From: Candidatus Melainabacteria bacterium 17Bon1m
Lineage (GTDB): Bacteria > Cyanobacteriota > Vampirovibrionia > Obscuribacterales > Obscuribacteraceae
Reading direction: 5' to 3'
DNA: 64,000 nucleotides
Assembly (NCBI GenBank): GCA_032128875.1
Contig: JAVLKG010000002.1
Location: 704,001 to 768,000 of the forward strand
The notes below the pieces were generated by a model, which saw only the letters and a program-made list of their open reading frames with translations, was not told where the DNA came from and did no database searches. The position numbers and the translations under genes were made by a program. Numbering within the stretch: the stretch's first letter is position 1; each line of letters opens with the position of its first letter. Positions 2,953 to 17,144 of the stretch are shown piece after piece.

Positions 2953-3330
2953 ATGCAGTCCATCAACTGGCAGTTATTCGTTGCAGGTCAGCCCGTGCAG
3001 CCGGGCGTAAATTTGCGCGTCAACGAAAAGTGGCAAAACAACCACGGCGCGTACTTGGTTCTACAGCCTTTTGAAAGTGAAAAGACATCGATATTCTGCG
3101 TTCGGTACAACGTAAATATCGGCGGCAAAGATTATCTACTTTTGGAAAACGCAAATTCACCAGAAGGTGATCTGACCGTCGTGAGATGTTTTGGACCAGA
3201 TAGATTTGGTGCGATGGACCCTGACCGATTTTCGAGCTTGCGAAACGCACTCATTGATTTCCTGAATAGCGAAAGGCCAACTGAGCTGGAAGTGCTGGAC
3301 AAACTGTTGGGCGGTTTAGAGGTGCGCTGA
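2953..3330 (+). CDS. hypothetical protein (weak DUF1292-like pattern)
   Basis: 125-aa ORF whose stop overlaps the next start (TGATG); 'NIGGKDYLLLE' resembles DUF1292 by eye only. Confidence 0.6.
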   Translation: MQSINWQLFVAGQPVQPGVNLRVNEKWQNNHGAYLVLQPFESEKTSIFCVRYNVNIGGKDYLLLENANSPEGDLTVVRCFGPDRFGAMDPDRFSSLRNALIDFLNSERPTELEVLDKLLGGLEVR

Positions 3331-4184
3331 TGGTGCAGGGTCGCGTGGCACAAAGTGTTTTAAATTGCGCGTTGCTGTTTGCATTTTGCGCGGCCGTTTT
3401 ATCCGTGCAAAACATTTCGGCATTGGCAGAATGCAGCTCGGGTATAGCACCAAAAGTTTCAACTTCTGTGCAAACGGTTTCGCCCGCTGAACAAATGTTC
3501 GAACGGGCAGACTGGGTGTTCAACAATGCTGAGCAAGTTCACTACGGACATCGTAAAGTCAGCGCAACCAATCAGGTTAAGCGTTTTAGCAATGGTCGAT
3601 GCGAAGCTGACACAGATTGTTCTGGTTTTGTCAGTTATCTGCTCTCCGATTTTCCAAAACATTATGACTCGATCCGCAAATTGCAACCGGACAGATCCTA
3701 TCCTCAAGCAAAGACCTATGTTCAGTTTTTTACTGATTTGAAAACAGATGCAGCGACGGACGGTTGGGTGAAAGTCGCCAGCACAGATGATTTGCGTCGT
3801 GGTGATTTAATCGCATGGAAGAAACCTCAACCAGCGGACGGCGTTAAGAGGAAAACAAATACAGGACACATCGCGATTGTGATTGATAGACCAGGTGCGG
3901 TTGAAGAGACGCAAATCAACGGACAAACGTATCGCTATCAAAGCATAAATGTAATTGATAGCTCTTCTGTAAAACATTTTCAACCCGAAATACTGCCACC
4001 ACTTTCTTCAATGCCTCATCGCGACGGCATCGGGAAAGGTGTGGTTCGCATTCTTTTGGATGATACCAATCGACCGATTGGATGCTGGGAAGGAACCTAT
4101 TGGTACGAAGGCAATAAAGATATAAGGAAACCGACTCTCACGAATTCAATTGCGTTTGCGCGCATGGTGGCAGATAGTAACTGA
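3330..4184 (+). CDS. secreted NlpC/P60-like (papain-fold) peptidase/amidase
   Basis: DCSGFVSY catalytic Cys motif, RRGDLIAW, GHIAIV catalytic His; signal-like N-terminus. Confidence 0.75.
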   Translation: MVQGRVAQSVLNCALLFAFCAAVLSVQNISALAECSSGIAPKVSTSVQTVSPAEQMFERADWVFNNAEQVHYGHRKVSATNQVKRFSNGRCEADTDCSGFVSYLLSDFPKHYDSIRKLQPDRSYPQAKTYVQFFTDLKTDAATDGWVKVASTDDLRRGDLIAWKKPQPADGVKRKTNTGHIAIVIDRPGAVEETQINGQTYRYQSINVIDSSSVKHFQPEILPPLSSMPHRDGIGKGVVRILLDDTNRPIGCWEGTYWYEGNKDIRKPTLTNSIAFARMVADSN

Positions 4185-4203
4185 GCAGGGAAGGATAGAG
4201 GTT

Positions 4204-5613
4204 ATGTTCAAAGACATCGTTTCGCAAGCAACGCCATTCATCGATCGCTGGCTGCAGTTTCGTTATGACCGTTTGGAATTGCCTGGGTTTGTTGTCGCGA
4301 TACAGATCGACGGCAAGATTGAATTCCAGAGAGCTTACGGTTTTGCAGATTTGGAAAAGCGCGAACCGATGACGACCGAGCATGTTTTTCGAATTGCATC
4401 GCATAGCAAGACCTTTGCTGCTACTGCAATCATGCAGCTTGCCGAAGAAAAGCTTTTGCATATCGATGAACCAGTTGCGAAGTATGTCCCCTGGATTCGT
4501 GATCATAAAGATCACCGTATGGAGAAGGTGACGATTCGCCAACTGATGTCCCACAGCGCCGGTATGATCAGAGATGGACGGGATGCGAATTTCTGGCAAC
4601 TGACAAATAGTTTTCACGATCTGGCTGCTTTCAAAAAAGCTCTTATGAGCTGCGACCTTGTTTTTGATACCAACAAGCAAATGAAGTATTCAAACTTCGG
4701 GTATGCACTGCTCGGATGTGTCATTGAGGAAGTATATGGCATGCCCTTCGGAAGCTATGTTCAAGCAAAAATCTTGCATCCGCTGGGTTTGTCTAACACT
4801 ACTCCTGAAGTGACTGCAGAAATGCTTTCCAGGCTTGTAGTCGGTTATTCGCGGCGCGGCAGAGAGAAGCAACGCCAACCGCTGGAGAAAAACATCGACA
4901 CAAAGCAAATGGCTGCAGCCACTGGATTTTGTTCTACAGCCGCGGACTTGTGCAAATATTTCGATGCACATTTTGTTGACTCGAAAAAACTCTTGAATGA
5001 CGAATCGAAGAAAGAAATGCAACGCACGCAGTGGCGTCTCAAAAACTCTCACATTGGTGAAGAGTATGGATTAGGCTTTCAAATCGAATCGATCCTAGAT
5101 AGAAAAGTATACGGTCATGGTGGTGCATTTCCTGGGCAGCGTACAAAGACCATCTGCGATCCTAACGAGCGATTGGTCATTACAGTATTGACCAATTGCA
5201 TTGATGGTGAGGCTTCCTTCATCGCTCGCGGGCTTTACACAGTGCTCGATCACTTTTACGGCAGTGCATTACGTGCTGATAGTGACACGATTGAGAAATT
5301 GCGCAAGTTCGAAGGAATTTATACAAGTCTCTGGGGCGATTTGGCCATCGTCGAATCCGGTAGAAACCTCATCGGAGTCGATCCCAATACATGGTTTCCA
5401 TTCGGGCGTGACCAGGATATTCAAGTGCTGGAATTGGCGGGCGACAACAAGCTCAGAATTGCGAACGCGAATGGCTATTACAGCGAAGGCGAACATGCAG
5501 AATTCGACTTCGACTTCAACGGAAACGTTATTTCTATAGACTATGCCGGCTACAACATGCTGCCGGAAGCCGAATATACCAACGAGCTTGTGAAGCCTAA
5601 GGTCGCTACCTGA
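4204..5613 (+). CDS. serine hydrolase, beta-lactamase class C/AmpC-like family
   Basis: ASHSKTF (SxxK), YSN, GHGG motifs; ATG 4204 follows a purine-rich RBS. Confidence 0.88.
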   Translation: MFKDIVSQATPFIDRWLQFRYDRLELPGFVVAIQIDGKIEFQRAYGFADLEKREPMTTEHVFRIASHSKTFAATAIMQLAEEKLLHIDEPVAKYVPWIRDHKDHRMEKVTIRQLMSHSAGMIRDGRDANFWQLTNSFHDLAAFKKALMSCDLVFDTNKQMKYSNFGYALLGCVIEEVYGMPFGSYVQAKILHPLGLSNTTPEVTAEMLSRLVVGYSRRGREKQRQPLEKNIDTKQMAAATGFCSTAADLCKYFDAHFVDSKKLLNDESKKEMQRTQWRLKNSHIGEEYGLGFQIESILDRKVYGHGGAFPGQRTKTICDPNERLVITVLTNCIDGEASFIARGLYTVLDHFYGSALRADSDTIEKLRKFEGIYTSLWGDLAIVESGRNLIGVDPNTWFPFGRDQDIQVLELAGDNKLRIANANGYYSEGEHAEFDFDFNGNVISIDYAGYNMLPEAEYTNELVKPKVAT

Positions 5614-5722
5614 TGCCAGACTTAATTGAAAACATGGAAAGTGCCAGCTAAAGACAATTACCTGGAGAAGAGACTGATAAGGAGTTATACTTCAGTCTTC
5701 GAAATATATACAGGTTGACATT

Positions 5723-7324
5723 ATGTTGAGAAAAATACTCTCGTTAGCTCTGGTAGCTGCACTTGGATTTTCCGCTGCAGCAAGTCCGGTTTTCGCCGGT
5801 GTCAGCGCGGTTGGTGAGTTGAAGAACACCCCACAGAATCATCCTGGACTCATATTGGACCAGTTTTACCTGGGGTGCCTTTCCCACGCCTCCTATTTGA
5901 TCGGTGATCCGGTCAGCAAGACTGCTGTCGTTGTGGACCCTCAGCGTGACATCAGCCAATATGTCGAAGAGGCAAGCAAGCAAGGCTTGAAAATCACGCA
6001 TGTTTTCCTGACCCATGTGCATGCCGATTTTGTTGCTGGGCATTTGGAGCTGCAACGAAAAGTCGGTGCCAAGATTTGCCTAGGCTCGAAAACGAAGGCT
6101 AGCTTTCCATTCACGAAATTGAAAGATGGCGATGTTGTTGATCTCGGCAGCATTCAGTTGAAGGTTTTAGATACACCGGGTCACACTCCTGAAGCGATTT
6201 CATTGCTCGTTTTCAATTCCAAAGTCGATAAGGTCAAACCGTACGCCGTGTTGACTGGAGATTGTCTCTTCATCGGCGATGTTGGTCGACCGGACTTGCT
6301 AGCTTCGCAGGGTGTCAGCGCTCAAGAACTCGCAGGCTTGCTCTACGATTCGACTCGCGAAAAACTCATGAAATTGCCGGATGAAACTCTCGTATACCCT
6401 GCTCATGGTGCAGGCTCTCTTTGTGGCAAAAACTTGAGCAAAGAAACCGTCTCTTCAATCGGAGAAGAGAAGAAAACCAACTACGCGTTGCAACCGATGA
6501 CGAAGGAAAAGTTCATTTCGCTCATTACTGAGGACCAACCGAAGACACCTCAATATTTTGGTTATGACGCGACGTACAACCTGACCAAGCACAAAACTCT
6601 CGATGAGGTTTTGGAAAAGTCACTAAAACCTTTGACTGTTGATGAAGCGATTCAGCAGCGCAATGGTGGTGCTCATTTGTTGGATGGCCGTGAATCAGAT
6701 GAATTTGCCAAACGGCATGTCGTCGATGCAATCAGCATTCCAATGAAAGGGCATTATGCAACTTGGGCCGGGACATTCCTCGACCACAATAAGCCGGTGG
6801 TTATCATTTCCGACCCAGGTAAAGAGCGTGAGGCTGCTATGCGCTTGGGACGAATTGGTTTTGACAATGTTGTCGGTTATGTGAAGGGCGGAATCGGCGC
6901 ATTCGAAAAACGCGACGATTTGGTGGCATCGAATGTTCGTGTGACACCCGATGCGCTCGCAATGCAAATGAAGTCTGATAAACCACCAATGGTTGTTGAT
7001 GTGCGCAACGATGCCGAATGGAACTCAGCCAGAATTGAAGGCTCTGTGCACATGCCATTGATCGGTTTGCTGGACAAAGTTGACAGCTTGCCTCGCGATC
7101 GCGAACTCATCATTTTGTGCGCGACTGGAAACCGTTCGTCAACGGCAGCGAGTTTATTGAGTCAGAAAGGAGTTACGCACGTAACTGATCTTGCAGGTGG
7201 AATAGAGGCCTGGCAGAAGCAGCAACTGCCGGTTAAACAAGCGGTAAGCTGCACAAAAGCTCCGGAAGCAATTGCCCCAACAGATGAGAACACCTCAAAA
7301 CGAGACGCAAAAACAAGCAACTGA
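5723..7324 (+). CDS. MBL-fold persulfide dioxygenase fused to two rhodanese domains (CstB-like), with N-terminal signal peptide
   Basis: THVHADF, TPGHTPE, GDVGRPDL, PAHGAGSLCGK motifs; pseudo-rhodanese followed by active rhodanese CATGNRS; Sec-type leader. Confidence 0.88.
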   Translation: MLRKILSLALVAALGFSAAASPVFAGVSAVGELKNTPQNHPGLILDQFYLGCLSHASYLIGDPVSKTAVVVDPQRDISQYVEEASKQGLKITHVFLTHVHADFVAGHLELQRKVGAKICLGSKTKASFPFTKLKDGDVVDLGSIQLKVLDTPGHTPEAISLLVFNSKVDKVKPYAVLTGDCLFIGDVGRPDLLASQGVSAQELAGLLYDSTREKLMKLPDETLVYPAHGAGSLCGKNLSKETVSSIGEEKKTNYALQPMTKEKFISLITEDQPKTPQYFGYDATYNLTKHKTLDEVLEKSLKPLTVDEAIQQRNGGAHLLDGRESDEFAKRHVVDAISIPMKGHYATWAGTFLDHNKPVVIISDPGKEREAAMRLGRIGFDNVVGYVKGGIGAFEKRDDLVASNVRVTPDALAMQMKSDKPPMVVDVRNDAEWNSARIEGSVHMPLIGLLDKVDSLPRDRELIILCATGNRSSTAASLLSQKGVTHVTDLAGGIEAWQKQQLPVKQAVSCTKAPEAIAPTDENTSKRDAKTSN

Positions 7325-8555
7325 TCTGCAAGAGGGCAATCACGTAAGCAGGAGAAAATTCTTGCTTCTGGCGGCAACTGTGGCGGCTGGCGGTTTGACG
7401 TCCGCATGTTCTAATCTTGCCGACGAAGATGCTCACAAGGGCGCAATCATCAAAGTGCGAGATGGTTTATCCGTAGCGCGCTTTCCTGAGAAAGAAGAGC
7501 TGATTTTGTTGACGGACCGCCCTCCTCAGCTCGAGACACCGCTTTTCTATTTTCGACAGGACCTCACTCCTAATGAAGCGTTTTTTGTGCGCTGGCACTT
7601 CTCTGGAATACCAACTTCGGTCGATTTGAGAACCTTCAAATTGACTGTTGGTGGCCATGTGCAAAAAACATTGTCATTGTCAGTCGATGACCTGAGAAAG
7701 CAATTCGAGCCTGTCTCTCTAGTAGCTGTAAATCAGTGTTCTGGAAACTCGCGCAGCTTCTTTTCGCCGCAGGTACCAGGTGGACAATGGGGACATGGTG
7801 CCGTTGGTAATGCCAGATGGACTGGTGTTCGCCTCAAAGACCTATTAAATAGGGCTGGCGTAAAACCTCAGGCAATGCAAGTGACATTCGCAGGTTTGGA
7901 TGAACCACCGCTCTATAGTATGCACAAGTTCGTCAAAGCTCTCGAGATTGATCATGCCATTGGTGATGAGGTTTTAGTCGCGTATGAGATGAACGGCGAA
8001 CCATTGCCTATGCTAAATGGTTTTCCCCTGCGCCTGGTGGTGCCAGGTTGGTATGCCACTTATTGGGTTAAGTCATTGGCGAAGATCGAGGTGTTACCGA
8101 GTAAGTTTGACGGCTTTTGGATGGAGAAGGCCTATCGAATTCCAAAGAACGAGAATGCTAACGAAACACCCGAAAATCTCGCGAAGGACACTATTCCTAT
8201 CAATCGCATGAATGTTCGATCTATTCTCGTACGTCCTGATTTCACGGATGTGGTTCGTGTCGGCAAGCAGTTTGAAATTGAAGGAATAGCATTCGATGGT
8301 GGAAGCGGAATTTCGAAAGTCGAAGTTTCGGTCGATGGTGGTGCATCCTGGTCTGTCGCACAACTAGACAATTCCGACAATGGTAAGTTTTCATTCAAAC
8401 GCTGGAGAATGTCATGGACGCCCACTTCTACCGGCAGCTATAAAGTTTTGACACGTGCTACTTCGGGCGATGGAAAAGTTCAGGGCCCGCAATTCTGGAA
8501 TAAGAGCGGCTACATGCGCAACGGCATTGAGCAAAATGAGGTCGCGGTTGTATAG
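7284..8555 (+). CDS. sorA: sulfite oxidase-family molybdoenzyme, SorA-type sulfite dehydrogenase; Tat lipoprotein
   Basis: SRRKFL Tat motif and LTSAC lipobox; FFVRWH, NQCSGNSR (Mo-binding Cys), GNARWTGV, GFPLRLVVPGWY; C-terminal dimerisation domain; start codon uncertain. Confidence 0.85.
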   Translation: MRTPQNETQKQATDLQEGNHVSRRKFLLLAATVAAGGLTSACSNLADEDAHKGAIIKVRDGLSVARFPEKEELILLTDRPPQLETPLFYFRQDLTPNEAFFVRWHFSGIPTSVDLRTFKLTVGGHVQKTLSLSVDDLRKQFEPVSLVAVNQCSGNSRSFFSPQVPGGQWGHGAVGNARWTGVRLKDLLNRAGVKPQAMQVTFAGLDEPPLYSMHKFVKALEIDHAIGDEVLVAYEMNGEPLPMLNGFPLRLVVPGWYATYWVKSLAKIEVLPSKFDGFWMEKAYRIPKNENANETPENLAKDTIPINRMNVRSILVRPDFTDVVRVGKQFEIEGIAFDGGSGISKVEVSVDGGASWSVAQLDNSDNGKFSFKRWRMSWTPTSTGSYKVLTRATSGDGKVQGPQFWNKSGYMRNGIEQNEVAVV

Positions 8556-8559
8556 CCTG

Positions 8560-8961
8560 ATGAAAATTATAAGAATGCCTGTTTTCGTGATCTTGATACT
8601 GTCCGCAGTACTTTATATGGTGTCATCTTTTTTTGCGACGCCATCAGTTAAGGCTGATAATGCTGATTCGCAAAGTAAGCCTTCGGCAATCAAAGTCACT
8701 GGCAAAACTATAGAGCTTCCTCACCTGCCGCCAGATTTCCCTCCGGGCAACGGACGCGAACTGTTCATTTCGCGTTGTGGAGTTTGTCATTCACTGCGAT
8801 ACATAACCATGCAGCCTAACTTTCCTGAGAAAACTTGGGCGAAAGAAGTGGACAAAATGATCAAAACCTACGGCGCCCATATCGATAAAAAGGAAGCCAA
8901 GGAAATTATCGAATACCTAAATTCAATCAAAGGAAAGGCGCCTAGCGCAGAAAAGCATTAA
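8560..8961 (+). CDS. sorB: SorB-like monoheme cytochrome c
   Basis: N-terminal TM/signal; CGVCHSLRYITMQP...W..EVDKM..YGA pattern typical of SorB; directly follows sorA. Confidence 0.8.
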   Translation: MKIIRMPVFVILILSAVLYMVSSFFATPSVKADNADSQSKPSAIKVTGKTIELPHLPPDFPPGNGRELFISRCGVCHSLRYITMQPNFPEKTWAKEVDKMIKTYGAHIDKKEAKEIIEYLNSIKGKAPSAEKH

Positions 8962-9503
8962 TGGCAGAAACTCCGGCAGACATCAAATATTCGGACAAGG
9001 GCAGTGGCAATAAAACGCCCGTTGTGCTTGCTGTCATCGTTGCAATTGTCGCTGCTGGTGTTTCTATATGGGGAGTCTCCAGCACTGGACTAATGGCAGG
9101 AGTACCTGAAAGCGCGAATACTCTGCCGGCACCGCCTACGGTTGCGCTGCCATCAGATAAAGGCGAGAAAGAGCGCCTGCTAAGGCTTGGTGCCCAAGTC
9201 CATCAGGAAAGTTGCGCCGGCTGCCACGCTGTGGATACCAAACTTATCGGTCCATCTTATCTGGATGTCTGCAAGTTGTATGGTGAATCCATGGACGTCA
9301 AAGGAACTCCATCTCCTGGCGTTACCGATCAGATTGATGTAGTTGCAATAAGTGGCATAAGCTTTGCTACCTCGCATCCAAAGAATAATTTATGGGATGG
9401 GTATCAAAGCGGGCCGGATATAACTTTGACTGCTGATCAGCGCCGTGCTGTCGCTGTTTGGATTTTCAATCTCTCCAATGAAAAGGAGGGCCGCGATGAC
9501 TGA
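8961..9503 (+). CDS. membrane-anchored monoheme cytochrome c (c-551/552-like)
   Basis: TM helix, CAGCH, KLIGPSY; TAATG overlap with upstream gene. Confidence 0.8.
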   Translation: MAETPADIKYSDKGSGNKTPVVLAVIVAIVAAGVSIWGVSSTGLMAGVPESANTLPAPPTVALPSDKGEKERLLRLGAQVHQESCAGCHAVDTKLIGPSYLDVCKLYGESMDVKGTPSPGVTDQIDVVAISGISFATSHPKNNLWDGYQSGPDITLTADQRRAVAVWIFNLSNEKEGRDD

Positions 9504-12183
9504 GTCTTCAGAAAATTCGAAGTCATCGATTGCAGTTGCTGTGCCGAGAATCGAATTCGGACTGGTCAAAGCACACGCGATCGCCGCTATGGTCACTGTT
9601 TTGATCTCTGTTACCTTTGGCGTAATTGTTTCTCTGAAATTGCATACGCCTGATTTTGCCAGCGCCAGCCCTTTTTTGACTTGGGGGCGATTGCGCTATA
9701 ACCACACACAGGGCATCTTCTTTGGATGGCTAGGCAACGCTTTTTTAATGTTCCTCTATTATGCGGTTCCGATGCTATCGATGCGTCCGGTTTTGAGTCG
9801 AAAGCTCGGCTGGATGTTGTTTGCTCTCTGGAATTTCGCAGTTGTCCTACCCGGCTGGCTGCTGGTCATGGCCGGGGTCAGTCAACCGTTGGAATGGGGC
9901 GAATTTCCGCTAATTGTCGACGTCTTCGTCGTGCTTGCATTCATCGCATCTGTCGTGCAATTTGCAATACCACTTTTGAAAACGAAGCTTTCTTCACTAT
10001 ATGTCAGCGGCTGGTACATTCTGGGCGGTCTGATATTTACACTCTTCGCTTATCCGATTGGTAATGTCATTCCTCAGATTGCTCCTGGTGCGCAAGGCGC
10101 TGCTTTTAGCGGGCTCTGGATTCACGATGCGATCGGTTTGTATGTGACTCCTCTAGCTCTAGCAATGGCATTTTTCGTTGTGCCCCTTGTGACGAAAAAG
10201 CCGCTATACAGCCACTTCCTTTCTATGCTCGGCTTCTGGCTGCTTTTCTTTGTTTATCCACTTAACGGAACCCACCATTACGTTTTCTCCGCCATTCCAA
10301 TGGATGCCCAGAAGGGAGCAATTGTCGCTTCGGTTTACTTGGGAATGGATGTGATTCTGGTTGTGACCAACCTTCTTCTTTCGATGCGAGGTTGTTCCAA
10401 ACTTCTGAAAGAAGACCTTTCCTTACGGTTTGTTTGGATGGGCACGATTCTCTATTTGATTGTCAGTCTGCAAGGCTCCATGCAGGCATTGATGCCCTTT
10501 AATCGTTTGATTCACTTCAGCGACTGGGTTATTGGACATTCACATTTGGCTATGCTCGGTTTTGCAACCTTCACCGCTATCGGTGGCATGACGTATGTTT
10601 GGCAGCGGGTTCCGAATGCACGGTTTAACCGTCGTGCGCTCAATCACGCTTATTGGCTATTGCTGATAGGCATGATAATGATGGTGTCGCTTTTGACGAT
10701 CGCCGGTCTGGCCGAAGCAAAGGTCTGGCAGACATCACTTCCTTGGATGGAATCGATTCGAGCGGCAAAACCGCATTGGCTTCATCGCACATTCTCAGCC
10801 ATTTTGGTGATTGGCGGTTTCATTTCCCTTTTCACTTCTTTCTTCACAGGTGCGAGAAACGAAATAACCTCAGCATCTGCATCCGCGAGTTCGCAAGAAA
10901 AGGCGGAAATTGATAGCGCTCCCACTCGCGGCCCGAAACGTTTGGGAATGGCATATGCTGCCGCCGGAATTGGTGGCATAGGATTTTTTCTCCTGTCGTT
11001 TACTGCCCTTGCTGTGATCCCTGGCATGGCTTTACAGAATGAAATTGCGCGAACCAAGCCTTCGACAATGTTGAAGCCCACTGAGCAAGAACAGCGCGGC
11101 CGTATAGTTTATGCACGAGAAGGATGCGCTTACTGTCATACACAGCAGATTCGCACTGTTCCACAAGATGTAGATCGCTTTGGTGCTCCCACTCGCGCCT
11201 GGGAAAATCGGTACGACTACCCGCAATTGTGGGGAACTCGAAGAATTGGCCCCGATTTGTCGCGCGAGACAAATATTCGCTCTGATGACTGGCAATTGAC
11301 TCATTTATACAATCCGCGCTCGATTGTTCCTGATTCGGTAATGCCATCTTTTCCATGGTTATTTGACGGCTCGCCTGCAAAGCCGAAAGCCGAAGCTGAT
11401 GATCTGCTTGCATACATAAAGTCACTAGGCAAAGCTCGCCAGCTGTCGGGAAATGATCCAAAGCAATTCACTCTTGCTCCTAATTGCGAATGTCCTGATG
11501 ACGTCAAAAAAATTGAAACTACTCCTGTGCCACTGAATGCAAGCGGATCTGTACGCACCGTTGGAGTACTACCGTTTGAAGTGACACTGCCCAGCGATGC
11601 TGCAAAACGTGCTGATCTACAGCGGAAGGGTGCAGTTTTGTTTGCTAAGAATTGCCAGGGGTGTCACGGTGAAATGGGTGATGGACAGGGACCGGCTGCT
11701 GAAGGGTTGTTTCCCAAACCCGCTGGTCTAATTGAGGCGAACTACACTACAAAGCACCTGGTTTCTGTGTTGATGAATGGTATTCCTGGAACTTCAATGC
11801 CTGCATGGAGAGATTTGCCTCGCGCTGATATAGAGGCGCTGGTTGCGCATCTTAAGACTTTGCCCGAGCGACCTGTTTATGTGACCTCTGCTGAAGAGAT
11901 GGCGAGCAAGGAAGTTCAGGCAGGCAAGAAGATTTACGAGCAAAAGTGCGTTTCTTGCCATGGTATTGAAGGTGATGGCAAAGGTCCAGCCTCTGCGACA
12001 CTAGATCGACCACCGGCAAACTTCAAAGAAGTACAACCGGAGCCTGATGATTTGCTCAACGTGCTCGAGGTAGGTGTTCCTGGCACCAGTATGCCACCAT
12101 GGAAGGACCAGCTGACCGAGCAGGAAAGGGACTACCTTTCGCGTTATGTTCAAGCCTTTTATGTAGAGGAGACCAAGAAATGA
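9496..12183 (+). CDS. ccoNO: fused cbb3-type (C-family) heme-copper oxidase: CcoN-like + CcoO-like + two C-terminal cytochrome c domains
   Basis: RBS AAGGAGG; RLRYNHT, IHDAIG, VYPLNGTHH, GHSH His ligands; EGCAYCHTQQIR and GTRRIGPDL (CcoO); CQGCH and CVSCH each followed by GTSMP. Confidence 0.88.
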   Translation: MTESSENSKSSIAVAVPRIEFGLVKAHAIAAMVTVLISVTFGVIVSLKLHTPDFASASPFLTWGRLRYNHTQGIFFGWLGNAFLMFLYYAVPMLSMRPVLSRKLGWMLFALWNFAVVLPGWLLVMAGVSQPLEWGEFPLIVDVFVVLAFIASVVQFAIPLLKTKLSSLYVSGWYILGGLIFTLFAYPIGNVIPQIAPGAQGAAFSGLWIHDAIGLYVTPLALAMAFFVVPLVTKKPLYSHFLSMLGFWLLFFVYPLNGTHHYVFSAIPMDAQKGAIVASVYLGMDVILVVTNLLLSMRGCSKLLKEDLSLRFVWMGTILYLIVSLQGSMQALMPFNRLIHFSDWVIGHSHLAMLGFATFTAIGGMTYVWQRVPNARFNRRALNHAYWLLLIGMIMMVSLLTIAGLAEAKVWQTSLPWMESIRAAKPHWLHRTFSAILVIGGFISLFTSFFTGARNEITSASASASSQEKAEIDSAPTRGPKRLGMAYAAAGIGGIGFFLLSFTALAVIPGMALQNEIARTKPSTMLKPTEQEQRGRIVYAREGCAYCHTQQIRTVPQDVDRFGAPTRAWENRYDYPQLWGTRRIGPDLSRETNIRSDDWQLTHLYNPRSIVPDSVMPSFPWLFDGSPAKPKAEADDLLAYIKSLGKARQLSGNDPKQFTLAPNCECPDDVKKIETTPVPLNASGSVRTVGVLPFEVTLPSDAAKRADLQRKGAVLFAKNCQGCHGEMGDGQGPAAEGLFPKPAGLIEANYTTKHLVSVLMNGIPGTSMPAWRDLPRADIEALVAHLKTLPERPVYVTSAEEMASKEVQAGKKIYEQKCVSCHGIEGDGKGPASATLDRPPANFKEVQPEPDDLLNVLEVGVPGTSMPPWKDQLTEQERDYLSRYVQAFYVEETKK

Positions 12184-12347
12184 TTTACGCTCTTCTGATA
12201 CTGATGACGGTGCTAGTTGGCATTTATGTTGTTGCCTGGTTTGTCAGTCCCTCTCTGCGTGATCTTTTGGAGAAACCAAATCAAGGTTTGCTGAACAATA
12301 GTGAAAAGTTTGAACAGAACAAAAATTGCAAAGGCGCGTTGAAATGA
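12180..12347 (+). CDS. 55-aa single-TM membrane protein (possible small oxidase subunit)
   Basis: MIYALLILMTVLVGIYVVAWFVSPSLRDLLEKP...; ATGA overlaps at both ends. Confidence 0.7.
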   Translation: MIYALLILMTVLVGIYVVAWFVSPSLRDLLEKPNQGLLNNSEKFEQNKNCKGALK

Positions 12348-12736
12348 AATTTGAAGATAAGCTCGAAATTCAAGAACTAACTTCTCGTTATGCCAACGCG
12401 ATGGATGATGCCGATTTGGATTCCTGGATAGCTACCTGGGACGCCAACGGATTGTGGAAAGGCGGACTTGGGGATTTCCAGGGGACAGATAAACTAAAAG
12501 AGCTCTTTGCGGCTCTTGGCGAGCGGATTAAAAACCGTAGGCATGTAATGACGAATTTCGTAATTGTAGGCGACGATGCACAGGCAGAGCAGCGTTGTTA
12601 TATGCTCGTTTTTGATCGCGTTAATGAAGCGCGCTTGATCGCGTCCGGCGTTTACAATGACCGCCTAATTAAGTCAGGTGGTGCGTGGAAGTTTTTAGAG
12701 CGCCGAGTCGCTCTTGACCCAAGTTTTCGTCCGTAA
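12344..12736 (+). CDS. SnoaL-like/NTF2-fold protein
   Basis: EDKLEIQELTSRYANAMD...RRHVMTN...GVYNDRL..GAWKF pattern of the SnoaL_4 family. Confidence 0.85.
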   Translation: MKFEDKLEIQELTSRYANAMDDADLDSWIATWDANGLWKGGLGDFQGTDKLKELFAALGERIKNRRHVMTNFVIVGDDAQAEQRCYMLVFDRVNEARLIASGVYNDRLIKSGGAWKFLERRVALDPSFRP

Positions 12737-12768
12737 TGCCAAAGGTTCGAGCCCCAAAGGAATTCATC

Positions 12769-14013
12769 ATGCTGAAACAGATTTTTATTGCCCTTAGCTC
12801 TGTTGTCATGCTGGCTGGACCCAGCTTTGCTAACGACATCGAAGTTCAGGAAAAAATTCGCATGAAGAGTGGCGAATGGATGGCTGAGATGCGGCAAGTC
12901 GACAAACTTAAGGCTCAGAAGAAGTGGGATGAAGCTGAAGCTGTGATTCGCAACATCATGGCTGAAAGGCAAGAGTTAAAACTCAATCTCAGCGGTGAGA
13001 AAAGATCGCTCGCTGAGTTGTACACCGCCGCAGGCAAACTTTCTGAAGCCGAGAAGATGTACAAGGAGCAAATCTCCGATCGTGAAACACACGATGGCAT
13101 TGATGATTTCATTCTTGTCCCAGTTTTGAATCAGTATGCTGAGTTCTTGCGTGCTCATGGTCGAGCGAAGGAAGCTGTTCCATTAGAGCAACGTGCCAAA
13201 GGCATTGAAGCTGACATTAACAAACCACCTAAAAAGCAAATTGCCGCCATCATGGGTGATACCAAATTGAGCAGCAACGACAAGTACAGCAAACTGTGCG
13301 ATTTGGGCAAAAGATTTCTCGACAGCGATAATGCCACCAAAGCTTCTTTTGCATTCACAGAAGCAATCAAGGTAAATCCGTATAAGCCAAGAGCTTACAA
13401 AATGCGTGCTCAAACTTATTACCAAACAGAAAAGTTGCAGGCAGCTCTCGAGGACTTGAATAACGCGCTAAAAGCTGACGCAAAAGATGCCGAAGCTTTG
13501 TTCGACCGCGGTCGCTTGTACCAGAGTTTGAACAAGCCGTTGAAAGCACTGAAAGACTTTGATGCGTCTATTGCTCTGCGACCCGGCGATGTAGATACAC
13601 TGGGTTATCGTGCGAAACAATTCGCAGCACTCGGACGTATCGACAATGCAATTGCCGACTACTCCTCTGCGATTAAGGCACAACCCCGGACACACTGGGC
13701 TTTTATCCAACGTTCTTTGCTTTACCGCGATTATAAGAAGGACACCGCTCAAGCTCTCAAGGATATCGACAATGCCATTGCCCTTGCGCCGAAGAACATA
13801 GATGACTGGGAATTGAGAGCTGAAACTCTCATGAAAGCCAAGCGCGTGAAAGAAGCAATCGCCGACGCGACCAAAATGATTGAAATCGAGCCAGATAGCA
13901 CTCAGGGCTACTCAATGAGGTCTCGAATCTACAAGGCAATAGAAGGACCGAAGTCCAAGAATGCTGCGGCAGACCTGGCTACCATCGAGAAGATGAGAAA
14001 AACGGCGCCATAG
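12769..14013 (+). CDS. secreted TPR-repeat protein
   Basis: Signal peptide MLKQIFIALSSVVMLAGPSFA; multiple TPR units (ALFDRGRLY...ALKDFDASIALRP). Confidence 0.85.
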   Translation: MLKQIFIALSSVVMLAGPSFANDIEVQEKIRMKSGEWMAEMRQVDKLKAQKKWDEAEAVIRNIMAERQELKLNLSGEKRSLAELYTAAGKLSEAEKMYKEQISDRETHDGIDDFILVPVLNQYAEFLRAHGRAKEAVPLEQRAKGIEADINKPPKKQIAAIMGDTKLSSNDKYSKLCDLGKRFLDSDNATKASFAFTEAIKVNPYKPRAYKMRAQTYYQTEKLQAALEDLNNALKADAKDAEALFDRGRLYQSLNKPLKALKDFDASIALRPGDVDTLGYRAKQFAALGRIDNAIADYSSAIKAQPRTHWAFIQRSLLYRDYKKDTAQALKDIDNAIALAPKNIDDWELRAETLMKAKRVKEAIADATKMIEIEPDSTQGYSMRSRIYKAIEGPKSKNAAADLATIEKMRKTAP

Positions 14014-14114
14014 TCCAGGGGAACAGACCCTGTATATATCCGTCTAGATCCCCATTGGTTTGTTCTCCTGTTTTATGAGAAGATGACCTGGGTCTCCTAA
14101 CAGGAAAGGACGAG

Positions 14115-14390
14115 ATGATGAACAGGTTTGCGATTGCTTCGTTGGTGATTTTGATTGCTGCTTTGAGTAACATCCCGGCTGCGGAAGCTGGTGCTGTCAC
14201 TAAAGGCATCAAGAAAGGCTATAACGCCACAGCCAACGGCGTAAAGAAGAGTGTTCGAGTCACGGAAGGTGGTGTTAAGAAGGGCGTTAAGGTGACGGTC
14301 GGCGGCACGAAGAAAGGGCTAAAGACGACCGATCAAGCACTTAAGAAATCTTGGCGCAGCACCACAAAGTTCGTAAAGAAGGTATTTTGA
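14115..14390 (+). CDS. small secreted cationic protein with 11-residue repeats
   Basis: RBS AGGA; signal peptide; GxKK motif every 11 aa. Confidence 0.75.
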   Translation: MMNRFAIASLVILIAALSNIPAAEAGAVTKGIKKGYNATANGVKKSVRVTEGGVKKGVKVTVGGTKKGLKTTDQALKKSWRSTTKFVKKVF

Positions 14391-15487
14391 TCGGAACAAC
14401 TGCTGTTAGTGCTCCAATCTCAAGGACCCAGGCTACCTGGGAACGCCGGCGTCTAGCCGGCTTTTTCTTTGGATGCACTTTAGCAATATTCTGTGCTTTG
14501 TCACTTTCCGGCACATCAGCCTTGGCAAAAGCGAAACAGAGCGCTAAAGCGCCAGATGCAGAATCCATGCCAATGGCTGCGCCACCAATTCAGCGTGGAG
14601 AGGTTTCTACAAGTTCGACCGCGCCTTTTTCTCTAAATGCATCGAAAACGCAAGAGAACACGACTATCCCACGTCCGGCGTTCAATCTCAACGCTACGAA
14701 GTTTACCCAGGGCGCAGAGCAAACAGATACCCAATTAATGCCAGGTGCGCCAAAGTTTGATGTTTCCGCCTTTCAGCAAGCCCCGCTTGCAGGCAATGCA
14801 CAGAAGCAGGCACCGCTTACCGGTGGAGTTCAGGCACTTAAGCTGCTAGCTAATTACGACATCGAGTTGATTGTCGATGAGTCGCTTTCGATGAGGAGGA
14901 TGGATTGCCCCGGTGGCTTGTCGCGATGGAATTGGTGTGGCATGCAAGCTGGCCAATTGGCGAAACAGCTTGCACCTTATGTCCGCAATGGTTTTACTCT
15001 GACTACCTTCGCTGGTGGTTACGAAGTCTATGATCATTCAACACCTGAAAATGTGATGCACCTCTTTCAGAATCCAATGTTCAGCCTTGGCACGAGAATG
15101 TCGCAACCTCTGGCAGACAGGCTCAACAATTTTTTCAGTAAGCGACAGAGCATAGGAAGACCGCTTCTGCTTGCAGTAATTACAGATGGTGTGCCTGCGC
15201 CTAAGCGTGAGCCATTTCTGGTGGCAGATGTTTTGATCAATGCCACTAAAAAGATGCGCGATGCAAAAGATGTGACGGTTGTGTTCTTCCAAATTGGCGG
15301 GGCAGATTTTAAAGGGCAGCGGTTTCTCAATTATTTAGACAATGGTCTGGTGGCAGATGGTGCACGTTTTGATATCGTAAAAAATGTTCCGATGGAGCGT
15401 TTGGCTCAAATCGGTTTGGCACAATCTCTGGTAAATTCGATTCAAGAGTTCGCTGCGCAAAATAAACAAGCTCCGAACCTTCGTTAA
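14387..15487 (+). CDS. exported vWA-domain protein
   Basis: MIDAS elements DESLS, T in LGTRMS, VITDG; N-terminal TM/signal; start uncertain (TTG 14387 overlaps upstream stop). Confidence 0.75.
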   Translation: MIGTTAVSAPISRTQATWERRRLAGFFFGCTLAIFCALSLSGTSALAKAKQSAKAPDAESMPMAAPPIQRGEVSTSSTAPFSLNASKTQENTTIPRPAFNLNATKFTQGAEQTDTQLMPGAPKFDVSAFQQAPLAGNAQKQAPLTGGVQALKLLANYDIELIVDESLSMRRMDCPGGLSRWNWCGMQAGQLAKQLAPYVRNGFTLTTFAGGYEVYDHSTPENVMHLFQNPMFSLGTRMSQPLADRLNNFFSKRQSIGRPLLLAVITDGVPAPKREPFLVADVLINATKKMRDAKDVTVVFFQIGGADFKGQRFLNYLDNGLVADGARFDIVKNVPMERLAQIGLAQSLVNSIQEFAAQNKQAPNLR

Positions 15488-15521
15488 CTGACAGCAAGTT
15501 TAATAGTCAATTGGATGAGAA

Positions 15522-15977
15522 ATGAAGATTTGGGTGGATGCTGATGCTTGTCCGGGTGCGGTGCGGGACATAGTTATTGCTGCATCACACAAGCGGAAGA
15601 TTCCAGCTTCATTCGTCGCTAACAAGCAGCTTTCCTTGCCGATTTCGGATTTGATTGCGTTTGTTCTTGTCGGAAACGCTCCTGACGCGGCGGATGCTTA
15701 CATTGTGGAGCAAGCCCAGAAAGGGGATCTTGTTATTACGCAGGACATCCCGCTTGCGCATCCGCTTGTACATAAGCAAATCGTAGTGATTAGCCCGCGT
15801 GGTTTGGTTTTTGACGAAGACAACATTGGTGAAAGGCTGTCTGTTAGAGACATGCTGCAGGATATGCGCGATGTTGGAATAGTGACGGGCGGACCTAAAC
15901 AATTTGGTGATAAGGAAAAACGGGAATTCGCGTCCAGCTTTGATAGAGAACTAACGAAACTTCTTAAAAAAGTGTAG
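15522..15977 (+). CDS. yaiI: YaiI/YqxD family (UPF0178/DUF188) protein
   Basis: MKIWVDADACP, DAADAYI, GDLVITQDIPLA, TGGP motifs. Confidence 0.92.
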   Translation: MKIWVDADACPGAVRDIVIAASHKRKIPASFVANKQLSLPISDLIAFVLVGNAPDAADAYIVEQAQKGDLVITQDIPLAHPLVHKQIVVISPRGLVFDEDNIGERLSVRDMLQDMRDVGIVTGGPKQFGDKEKREFASSFDRELTKLLKKV

Positions 15978-15989
15978 ATTAGTATTCTC

Positions 15990-17144
15990 ATGAATATTCA
16001 AGAAATTGAGATTTCCGGCTACCGATCTGTTGACGACCTGAAATTAGAGCTGAGCAACGTGACAGTTCTTGTGGGTCCGAACGGTTGTGGAAAGAGCAAT
16101 ATCTATCAGTCTATAAACCTCATCGCGGCAGCTGCGACCGGTCAGTTTGCGCGTCGGATTGCAGAGGAAGGCGGCATGCAGTCCATCCTCTGGGCGGGTG
16201 GCAGAAGCAAGAACGAGAAGCCGAGAACCAGATTGAGCGTGAATTTTGATCAACTGTCATATTCAATTGAGTTCGGCGTAATTCCCGTTAGCGATAGGAT
16301 ATCAGTACCGTTTTTCAAATTAGATCCGGATATCAAGGAAGAATCTGTAGAGATAAAATCTGGTTCTCGTAAGGTAAATCTGCTGAAGCGAAAGCGATTA
16401 ATTATTACGGCGAAGGATATTGATGGCGAAGAACTGGCGTTCTCCGACACTGTGACAGAGAGTGAATCTGTTCTATCAGAACTCAGAGAGCCACAAAGAT
16501 TTCCAGAGTTAGTAAATCTGAGATCTCAATTTCTTCGTTGGCGTTTCTATCACGACTTCAGGACAGATCTGCAGTCTCCAATACGTGATCCTCAAGTCGC
16601 CACACTAACGCCAATTCTTAGCCACGATGGTCGAGATTTGGCTGCTACCCTTGCAACAATTCGGTCAATCGGCAATGTGGAAAAGCTTCGTTATTCCGTA
16701 CAGAAGGCTTTTCCGGGTAGCTCTATTGTCATTGAAGAAGAAGAGGGTGCTCTCCACCTAAGCATGAGCTTTCCAGGTATATCGAGAAATCTTGAGGCGC
16801 GTGAGCTGTCAGATGGAATACTCCAATACCTTTGTTTGCTTGCTGCCCTTTTGACTCCGCGTCCAGCACCATTTATGGTGCTCAATGAACCGGAAACGAG
16901 TATCCATTATGACTTGCTGAAACCGATGGCAGATCTAATTGTCGCGGCATCGGAGAACTCACAAATATTGCTAACAACACATTCTAAAGAACTCGCACGA
17001 TCGCTTCGACTGAAGGGCGCTACCGTTTATGAGCTGGAAAAGATTGACGGTGCGACAACTCTTAAAGGCACGCGAAAAATAAAAACGCATGAGCAAAAAA
17101 TGCGTGGATGGCTTGGAGCAGAAACCGAAATGGAAGATCCTTGA
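15990..17144 (+). CDS. ABC/SMC-type ATPase (AAA_21, COG4637-like)
   Basis: GYRS, Walker A GPNGCGKS, signature LSDG, Walker B VLNEPE, TTHS. Confidence 0.88.
   Translation: MNIQEIEISGYRSVDDLKLELSNVTVLVGPNGCGKSNIYQSINLIAAAATGQFARRIAEEGGMQSILWAGGRSKNEKPRTRLSVNFDQLSYSIEFGVIPVSDRISVPFFKLDPDIKEESVEIKSGSRKVNLLKRKRLIITAKDIDGEELAFSDTVTESESVLSELREPQRFPELVNLRSQFLRWRFYHDFRTDLQSPIRDPQVATLTPILSHDGRDLAATLATIRSIGNVEKLRYSVQKAFPGSSIVIEEEEGALHLSMSFPGISRNLEARELSDGILQYLCLLAALLTPRPAPFMVLNEPETSIHYDLLKPMADLIVAASENSQILLTTHSKELARSLRLKGATVYELEKIDGATTLKGTRKIKTHEQKMRGWLGAETEMEDP

Follow-up and report, generated by a model that had tools for sequence, protein, structure and literature searches.

The sulfite dehydrogenase SorAB of Starkeya novella is encoded by a gene for a molybdenum subunit followed by one for a monohaem cytochrome c, and its electrons pass to soluble cytochrome c550 and an aa3 oxidase. 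In Campylobacter jejuni, the electrons end at a general cbb3 oxidase, and the sor genes are unlinked to the oxidase. According to PMC4178425 (citing Myers and Kelly 2005), this chemoheterotroph employs a periplasmic SorAB (Cj0005c/Cj0004c) that feeds sulfite electrons to cytochrome c. Nitrospina gracilis carries a fused ccoNOP in which subunits I-III form one 954-aa polypeptide, with Gly in place of Trp203 near CuB (Luecker et al. 2013; PMC3578206), and bacterial persulfide dioxygenases are treated as cytoplasmic in a passage of PMC11507549. Here we describe a locus of Candidatus Melainabacteria bacterium 17Bon1m, at positions 5723-12736 of a 64,000-nucleotide stretch (the window; contig JAVLKG010000002.1, positions 704,001 to 768,000), in which genes for SorAB, a c-type cytochrome and a single-chain oxidase follow each other on the same strand. 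Judging from gene content and conservation, we consider it rather likely that the core of this operon is a self-contained sulfite:O2 respiratory module, to which an exported CstB-like enzyme has been added in the Obscuribacteraceae-like family. The genome that holds the window measures 7.55 Mb in 35 contigs and is 93% complete, and the closest records with a name bear the labels Candidatus Melainabacteria, Obscuribacterales or Obscuribacteraceae.

A reading of the window made from its sequence only had proposed seven co-oriented genes, and the list of open reading frames (ORFs) bears them out as g1 to g7; an eighth gene, coding for a TPR protein and absent from that reading, follows directly. 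The features are as follows (TM, transmembrane):

5723..7324, + strand: g1, exported persulfide dioxygenase of the CstB-like kind, 533 aa, with pseudo-rhodanese and rhodanese domains
7284..8555, + strand: g2, molybdenum sulfite dehydrogenase of the SorA type, 423 aa if read from the ATG (the frame is open from a TTG at 7272 as well)
8560..8961, + strand: g3, SorB monohaem cytochrome c subunit, 133 aa, CGVCH at residue 73, signal-like N-terminus
8961..9503, + strand: g4, class I cytochrome c with a membrane anchor, 180 aa, TM-like segment 21-39, CAGCH at 85
9496..12183, + strand: g5, single-chain C-family haem-copper oxidase, 895 aa, CcoN, CcoO and dihaem CcoP-like parts
12180..12347, + strand: g6, small protein with one TM helix, 55 aa, TM-like segment 4-22, no match in the family search
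12344..12736, + strand: g7, SnoaL/NTF2-like protein without export signal, 130 aa, Pfam SnoaL_4 at an E value of 3.9e-19
12736..14013, + strand: TPR protein with TM-like N-terminus, 425 aa, TPR families matched

All the junctions described previously were confirmed by reading the sequence. Overlaps are found at 7284-7324 (g1/g2) and 9496-9503 (g4/g5), four bases lie between the g2 stop (8555) and the g3 ATG (8560), the g3/g4 junction is a TAATG (8957-8961), and ATGA is found at 12180 (g5/g6) and 12344 (g6/g7). Since the start of the TPR gene overlaps the g7 stop in a further TAATG, we regard all eight genes as tightly coupled. Export and membrane segments were called by direct reading and a crude hydropathy scan, and are hence termed 'signal-like' and 'TM-like'. 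The earlier count of six exported or membrane-bound products out of seven proved correct: g1 and g3 start with a signal-like segment, g2 carries a twin-arginine motif (SRRKFL), g4 and g6 have one TM-like helix each and g5 is polytopic, and g7 has no such segment.

The family assignments of the sequence-only reading (CstB-like, SorAB, cytochrome c, fused cbb3) hold in comparisons with Pfam, NCBIfam and PDB. For g2, the SorA model of NCBIfam scores best by far (505.5 bits, versus 184.1 for SorT, 169.1 for SoxC and 51.9 for MsrP), and chain A of PDB 2BLF, the Starkeya novella enzyme, is matched with an E value of 4.1e-110; thus, the molybdenum enzyme falls with SorA rather than with MsrP. The NQCSGNSR and VRWH stretches of g2 align with the same stretches of 2BLF, and we take them to hold the Mo-ligand cysteine and the Arg/His substrate pocket. 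Pfam Oxidored_molyb (187.7 bits) and Mo-co_dimer (47.7 bits) both score above their cut-offs, and g2 is the sole Oxidored_molyb gene found in the genome. The cognate SorB cytochrome c is encoded beside it by g3, whose single PDB match is 2blf_B (8.4e-10). The order of the two genes and the alignment of the active-site motifs are those of Starkeya SorAB; unlike the latter, the window genes share an operon with a terminal oxidase and score below the NCBIfam equivalog cut-offs. Together, g2 and g3 are predicted to form a sulfite:cytochrome c enzyme.

The product of g4 matches Pfam Cytochrom_C (22.1 bits for a cut-off of 21.3) and, weakly, PDB entries of the c551/c552/c555 kind. At 24-36% identity, homologues are found at this position in Agrobacterium and in the majority of loci named Acidobacteriota, and the gene is missing from one Obscuribacterales group (L017-L021, L038, L039, L041, L042). 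We regard g4 as a candidate shuttle or extra subunit.

In g5, a CcoN part (residues ~1-470) is followed by a TM anchor with the CcoO haem c site (CAYCH at 544) and by a dihaem CcoP-like part (CQGCH at 720, CVSCH at 818), all in one polypeptide, unlike the separate ccoNOQP genes. Pfam COX1 (8e-54), FixO (1.5e-37, 129.7 bits) and Cytochrome_CBB3 (in two stretches) are matched, as are PDB 3mk7_A (3.2e-39) and 3mk7_B (6e-30); the scores are lower than the NCBIfam equivalog cut-offs for ccoN (172.2 versus 583), ccoO (119.8 versus 200.65) and ccoP (52.8 versus 179.95). Residues H70, H210, Y254, H260, H261, H348 and H350 align with the Pseudomonas stutzeri ligands. They do not vary among 14 sequences and cover the three CuB histidines, both ligands of haem b, the one of haem b3 and the helix-VII tyrosine. 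Two positions differ from P. stutzeri, where Trp203 corresponds to G206 and Glu323 to Q326. Like ccoNOP of Nitrospina, g5 is a single chain (895 versus 954 aa) with Gly at position 203; His202 and Tyr208 of the Nitrospina protein are Ser205 and Asp211 in g5. The Nitrospina sorBA (NITGRv1_140025/26) and ccoNOP (NITGRv1_270015) genes bear unrelated locus numbers in supplement file 1 of PMC3578206, whereas in the window the two systems are adjacent. Relatives of g5 are numerous: out of 8000 candidates, 1194 proteins reach E <= 1e-20. The top 120 all measure 876-931 residues and carry the same four Pfam families.

A small ORF directly follows the oxidase gene in 13 SorAB-group loci when g6 is the tblastn query, and in 32 of 36 loci without SorAB, together with five SorAB-group loci, when the query is the 61-aa ORF of L043 (itself counted among the 32). 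Placed like CcoQ, the g6 product is probably a small subunit of the oxidase.

In order to follow the pairing of SorAB with this oxidase, one genome per species was scanned, yielding 401 g5 relatives, of which the best 80 loci were kept and searched by tblastn with the window proteins. At least 2.5 kb of upstream sequence is available for 69 loci, and in 37 of them SorA and SorB immediately precede the oxidase. In a quick maximum-likelihood tree of CcoN (82 rows), all 43 rows with SorAB fall within one clade of 45 (SH-aLRT 100, branch length 0.54); the other two members have short flanks that hold partial evidence, namely SorB and g4 in L028 and g4 in L035. By record name, the clade comprises Melainabacteria/Obscuribacterales (20 loci and the window), Acidobacteriota, Planctomycetota (L070, L071, L085) and Agrobacterium burrii Rnr (L072); a few names (such as Saccharimonadales, Myxococcales and Drouetiella) look like the result of binning errors. 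The SorA tree shows the same subclades as the CcoN tree.

A sample of 301 genomes from the class shows the same tie. Of these, 23 contain the oxidase, namely the window's own genome and 22 of the 96 others of its family, against none of the 204 genomes of the other ten families. An orthologue of SorA (at least 59% identity) is found in 25 of the 301, which include all 23 oxidase genomes, and in 23/23 it lies 0.4-1.1 kb from the oxidase on the same contig; in the remaining two, SorA is near a contig start or partial. Nine further genomes hold SorA matches of 36-45% identity only. Adjacency, a single clade spanning four phyla and the 23 of 23 class genomes thus support SorAB and the fused oxidase as one functional unit, and the conserved core is SorA-SorB-(cytochrome c)-oxidase-small protein. 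The whole operon had previously been treated as a unit; this stands for the co-conserved SorAB-oxidase core, and not for the CstB-like gene, which is a lineage add-on, nor for the SnoaL gene, which is limited to near relatives.

In Agrobacterium burrii Rnr, an ORF (L072:1769-2344) and a divergent LysR regulator flank the SorAB-oxidase module, whose gene order in this isolate is SorA, SorB, cytochrome c, CcoN, CcoOP and small ORF. The start of the flanking ORF resembles an IS110-type transposase, and such flanks would fit a horizontal acquisition of the module.

Thirty-six loci without SorAB fall outside the SorAB clade (L043-L047, L050-L069, L073-L078, L080-L084). Where mapped (L043, L047, L057, L073), their oxidase is split into CcoN and CcoO-P and is followed by a 61-residue ORF, and then by a protein of ~330 residues with a SoxA/TsdA cytochrome domain, which aligns, cysteine stretch included, with the thiosulfate dehydrogenase TsdA of Allochromatium vinosum (4WQ7; 1.2e-36). 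This TsdA-like gene lies directly downstream in 31 of 31 non-SorAB loci with at least 1.2 kb of downstream sequence, and in 0 of 44 SorAB-group loci; a two-domain rhodanese is also encoded in 12 of the 31. A distant gene of the sulfite oxidase family (29-39% identical to SorA) was observed 1-11 kb away in L047, L050, L052, L055, L056 and L064.

Oxidases 54-57% identical to g5 are carried by plasmids of cultured Paraburkholderia fungorum, Acetobacter ascendens and Komagataeibacter xylinus. On the plasmids of P. fungorum (NZ_CP099644.1) and A. ascendens (NZ_CP015167.1), the neighbours are annotated as DsrE family and substrate-binding proteins, with two c-type cytochromes upstream, and no SorA is annotated among the oxidase neighbours in these two records. 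YeeE/YedE genes lie near the Paraburkholderia plasmid oxidase, and the A. ascendens plasmid is mobilizable and 43 kb in size. The family as a whole is recognisable by the stretch AFSGLWIH. The TsdA-linked modules (Acidobacteriota, plasmids) thus resemble the window in having the same oxidase family, the same small ORF and an adjacent periplasmic sulfur-oxyanion dehydrogenase; they differ in that the donor is a downstream TsdA-like dihaem cytochrome, often with a rhodanese or DsrE, and in that the oxidase is split into CcoN and CcoO-P, in the four maps and on the annotated plasmids, rather than single-chain. Because either SorAB or a TsdA-like gene adjoins the oxidase, the whole family appears to be tied to sulfur-oxyanion donors.

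The first gene of the operon has a narrower distribution. In Pfam, g1 matches Lactamase_B (2.1e-12) and Rhodanese (4.6e-31, in two stretches), and its three-domain build aligns end to end, from residue 42-44 onward, with PDB 3tp9 of Alicyclobacillus (2.2e-88) and 3r2u, the Staphylococcus aureus CstB (1.7e-62). It shares with them the metal motif (THVHADF at 97, GHTPE at 153), the Cys-Gly loop (Cys234-Gly235) and the C-terminal rhodanese cysteine (Cys466), the last two matching C201-G202 and C408 of S. aureus CstB. Unlike the latter, g1 belongs to a respiratory operon rather than a cst-type stress operon, and begins with an extension of ~40 residues that includes a signal-like segment of ~26 residues, a feature at odds with a cytoplasmic location. 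Among 44 of its relatives of at least 495 aa, 40 have a 12-residue stretch of mean hydropathy at least 1.8 ahead of the metallo-beta-lactamase (MBL) domain, and the closest (501-546 residues) show a charged-then-hydrophobic N-terminus followed by a conserved mature start. Three comparison forms of 464-471 aa (from Terriglobia, Nitrospira and one unnamed source) begin at the MBL domain.

Among 63 loci whose upstream flank reaches at least 4.5 kb, 13 have a g1 gene next to SorA, as do L008 and L020, whose flanks are shorter; all these g1 loci are of the Melainabacteria group, and three loci of this group (L015, L016, L042) lack g1 upstream of SorA. In the class sample, the exported CstB type, defined by a match from residue 19 or earlier at 53% identity or more, was found in 23 genomes: 22 of the 25 with a SorA orthologue (adjacent to SorA in 19), and one of the 276 others, a genome that is 64% complete. 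The cytoplasmic CstB type (~43% identical) is widespread, with some match in 71 of the 96 family genomes. The CstB-like gene is therefore an add-on of the Obscuribacteraceae-like family, where it co-occurs with the core module.

The end of the operon is also restricted. In the tblastn search of the loci, g7 is directly downstream in L006 and L008-L013 only, and elsewhere there is one weak match (L023, 27% identity, opposite strand, ~8 kb off). The TPR gene is directly downstream, at 71-96% identity, in the near relatives L006-L013 only, and L015 and L016 hold weak matches (25-26% identity) on the opposite strand. A TPR protein adjoins the oxidase in SorAB and TsdA types alike (window 12736-14013 and L043:8863-9483), and both proteins show a weak match to the TPR domain of CcmH/CycH cytochrome c biogenesis proteins (E ~5e-4, below cut-off); such a gene beside the oxidase may be due to chance or may encode an assembly factor. 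Upstream of the operon, 109 bases separate g1 from a serine-hydrolase gene, and the region, with a GC content of 0.47-0.49, does not stand out from the remaining window. A promoter scan of 3000-16000 gave 11 promoter-like sites versus 14.1 expected by shuffling, and neither this result nor the one weak site ahead of g1 (5663-5691) is usable as evidence.

The genome encodes three haem-copper enzymes, namely g5, a canonical CcoN/CcoO-P and a quinol-type nitric oxide reductase (qNOR), and also a cytochrome bd. The canonical oxidase belongs to a respiratory operon on the minus strand (C2:895965-904701). Besides CcoN and a CcoO-P fusion, this operon encodes a dihaem cytochrome c, a Rieske protein, an FlpD-like protein and two cytochrome b-like proteins, of which one carries a fused ferredoxin domain. 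It forms a complex III-IV gene cluster like that reported for Obscuribacter. The sequence-only reading had placed the pathway in a setting with no bc1 step, which does not hold at genome level, where a canonical cbb3 stands beside Rieske and cytochrome b genes elsewhere on the same contig. The qNOR (C1:412299-416583; 756 aa, with a NorB cytochrome c-like domain) lies beside a dihaem cytochrome c and a rubredoxin-ScdA-hemerythrin fusion. As for cofactor assembly, MoaA scores above its cut-off and ResB is present in a check for molybdenum cofactor and cytochrome c maturation genes.

The absence of Sox and of sulfide:quinone oxidoreductase (SQR) had also been proposed. It is borne out to the extent that the best SoxB score is 140.4 for a cut-off of 550 and that no SQR is found among the 11 of 25 Pyr_redox_2 matches examined in this 93%-complete genome, these being NDH-2 (L103), lipoamide dehydrogenase, thioredoxin reductases, CoA-disulfide reductase and others; rDsr, included in the same claim, was not searched for. 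A cst-like operon is present at C1:594346-598976 (L097:5346-9976), with a rhodanese that has a YgaP-like TM part, the sulfite exporter TauE/SafE, a CstB paralogue that lacks a signal segment and is 44% identical to g1, and a CoA-disulfide reductase-rhodanese fusion. This cytoplasmic operon is a likely internal source of periplasmic sulfite. A third MBL-rhodanese protein (C3:148482-149618; L098:2482-3618) has 379 aa and a single rhodanese domain and is encoded beside a bacteriophytochrome-like gene; we take its build to recall the PRF and Blh type of fusion.

From gene content, residues, synteny, phylogeny and co-occurrence, we infer an electron path, substrates, a mode of energy conservation and a direction for the CstB-like enzyme. 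The Tat-exported SorA would oxidize periplasmic sulfite to sulfate and pass two electrons to the SorB haem, from where they would travel, with or without g4, to the dihaem CcoP-like and CcoO domains of g5, and then through haem b to haem b3-CuB and O2. Energy would be conserved solely at the oxidase, by charge separation, so that the pathway would bypass the quinone pool and the bc complex. The g1 product would handle periplasmic sulfane sulfur or thiosulfate: with SorAB removing sulfite, its rhodanese half-reaction could run from thiosulfate, to give an enzyme persulfide and sulfite, and its Fe/O2 site would oxidize or recycle the sulfane sulfur, for a net conversion of thiosulfate to sulfate. 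More speculatively, SorAB, the anchored cytochrome c and the oxidase might form a physical supercomplex, which together with g1 might allow these non-photosynthetic relatives of cyanobacteria to take thiosulfate or sulfane sulfur all the way to sulfate in the periplasm, with energy conservation and independently of Sox, and the Gly203 cbb3 family might consist of private oxidases for SorAB or TsdA; we put this forward as a tentative extension that we doubt more than we believe.

Several observations weigh against the proposal of a sulfite:O2 module with an added CstB-like enzyme. The SorA score of g2 stays below the curated NCBIfam cut-off of 600, as does the SorB score of g3 (74.6 bits for a cut-off of 93), and the changes at Trp203 and Glu323 bear on the predicted O2 reduction and proton pumping of g5. 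Electrons from SorAB could also be taken by the canonical cbb3 or the bd oxidase. Transcription was approached through four public libraries labelled RNA-Seq, each of which yields one ~26-kb contig with even depth over 3000-16000; since these contigs are near-identical and evenly covered, the libraries look like DNA or the source assembly and are uninformative on transcripts. With regard to g1, no periplasmic source of thiol or persulfide was identified, and the Pyr_redox_2 proteins examined offer no SQR as a source of persulfide. CstB of S. aureus is reported to convert two persulfides to thiosulfate with no release of sulfite, by means of its Cys-Gly loop and rhodanese cysteine (PMC12934615). 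The idea that CstB supplies sulfite to SorAB conflicts with this chemistry, and because g1 keeps both features of the thiosulfate mechanism, a simple path from persulfide through sulfite to SorAB is doubtful.

The alternative that survives best concerns g1 itself, which may not feed SorAB at all and may instead convert periplasmic persulfides or polysulfides to thiosulfate, guarding the oxidase and thiols, with the operon being shared because of life at a sulfidic-oxic interface. The conservation of C234-G235 and Cys466, which belong to the thiosulfate-forming mechanism of PMC12934615, is consistent with this role, as is the occurrence of the core module with no g1 in loci named Acidobacteriota, Planctomycetota and Agrobacterium and in L015, L016 and L042. 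However, an exported CstB without SorAB was found in just one of 276 class genomes, and the gene usually overlaps the SorA start, which speaks for one common pathway and against two stress functions running in parallel; we therefore hold this role for g1 to be possible but on balance unlikely.

Somewhat less probable still, in our view, is that the module serves detoxification, removing internal sulfite that stems from cytoplasmic CstB or from organosulfonate or cysteine breakdown and is exported by TauE, with the oxidase as a private sink and energy conservation incidental. The cytoplasmic rhodanese-TauE/SafE-CstB-CoA-disulfide reductase operon of the same genome would suit such a role, as would the lack of Sox or SQR lithotrophy genes in the searches made (SoxB; 11 of 25 Pyr_redox_2 matches). 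A plain sink, however, needs no dedicated oxidase clade kept with SorAB across four phyla, given that a canonical cbb3 and a bd oxidase are present; in addition, the electron path would be identical to that of the respiratory module, and only its physiological purpose would differ.

Two further alternatives appear very improbable. The low ccoN score (172.2 bits versus 583) and the changed Trp203 and Glu323 could suggest that g5 is no O2 reductase, for instance a nitric oxide reductase derived from the C family, with SorAB donating to another acceptor, but the CuB histidines, the haem b and b3 ligands and the helix-VII tyrosine are invariant, C-family-derived nitric oxide reductases are not known to keep these residues, and the genome already has a separate qNOR. 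SorAB and the oxidase could likewise be mere co-regulated neighbours, for example as low-oxygen genes, but the one-to-one tie between oxidase clade and donor (SorAB in 43 of 43 testable rows, TsdA in 31 of 31 loci) and the congruent SorA and CcoN subclades speak against it.

A sulfite:O2 module thus remains the interpretation that we favour, and some of its parts are already known. Fused cbb3 oxidases have been described, and SorAB respiration occurs in heterotrophs; the earlier view that the combination would be unexpected in a heterotrophic Vampirovibrionia-like host does not stand as regards SorAB respiration, in light of C. jejuni (PMC4178425). Unlike in C. jejuni, the oxidase of the window belongs to a separate, dedicated clade and is encoded beside SorAB. 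For peatland Acidobacteria, PMC6018796 mentions low-homology soxCD/sorAB genes of unclear function. Neither a SorAB-oxidase cluster nor an exported CstB is described in the literature searched, a scope that excludes most subscription journals. The locus would combine known parts in a dedicated sulfite-to-O2 module, joined in one lineage by an exported CstB-like enzyme.

Respiratory chains are commonly depicted as shared pools, in which many dehydrogenases feed common cytochromes and oxidases. An oxidase lineage that is tied to one donor across phyla, and whose relatives are tied to a second sulfur enzyme, suggests the existence of private electron lines for sulfite and thiosulfate. An exported form of persulfide dioxygenase is also identified here, for a class described as cytoplasmic in bacteria in a passage of PMC11507549. 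Both types have cultured carriers, namely Agrobacterium burrii Rnr (SorAB) and Paraburkholderia fungorum and Acetobacter ascendens (TsdA), so that the idea is directly testable. If it is true, it would provide gene markers for this activity in metagenomes, and the role in sulfur oxidation of abundant soil and freshwater heterotrophs, represented here by Obscuribacterales, Acidobacteriota and Planctomycetota records, would need to be re-evaluated.

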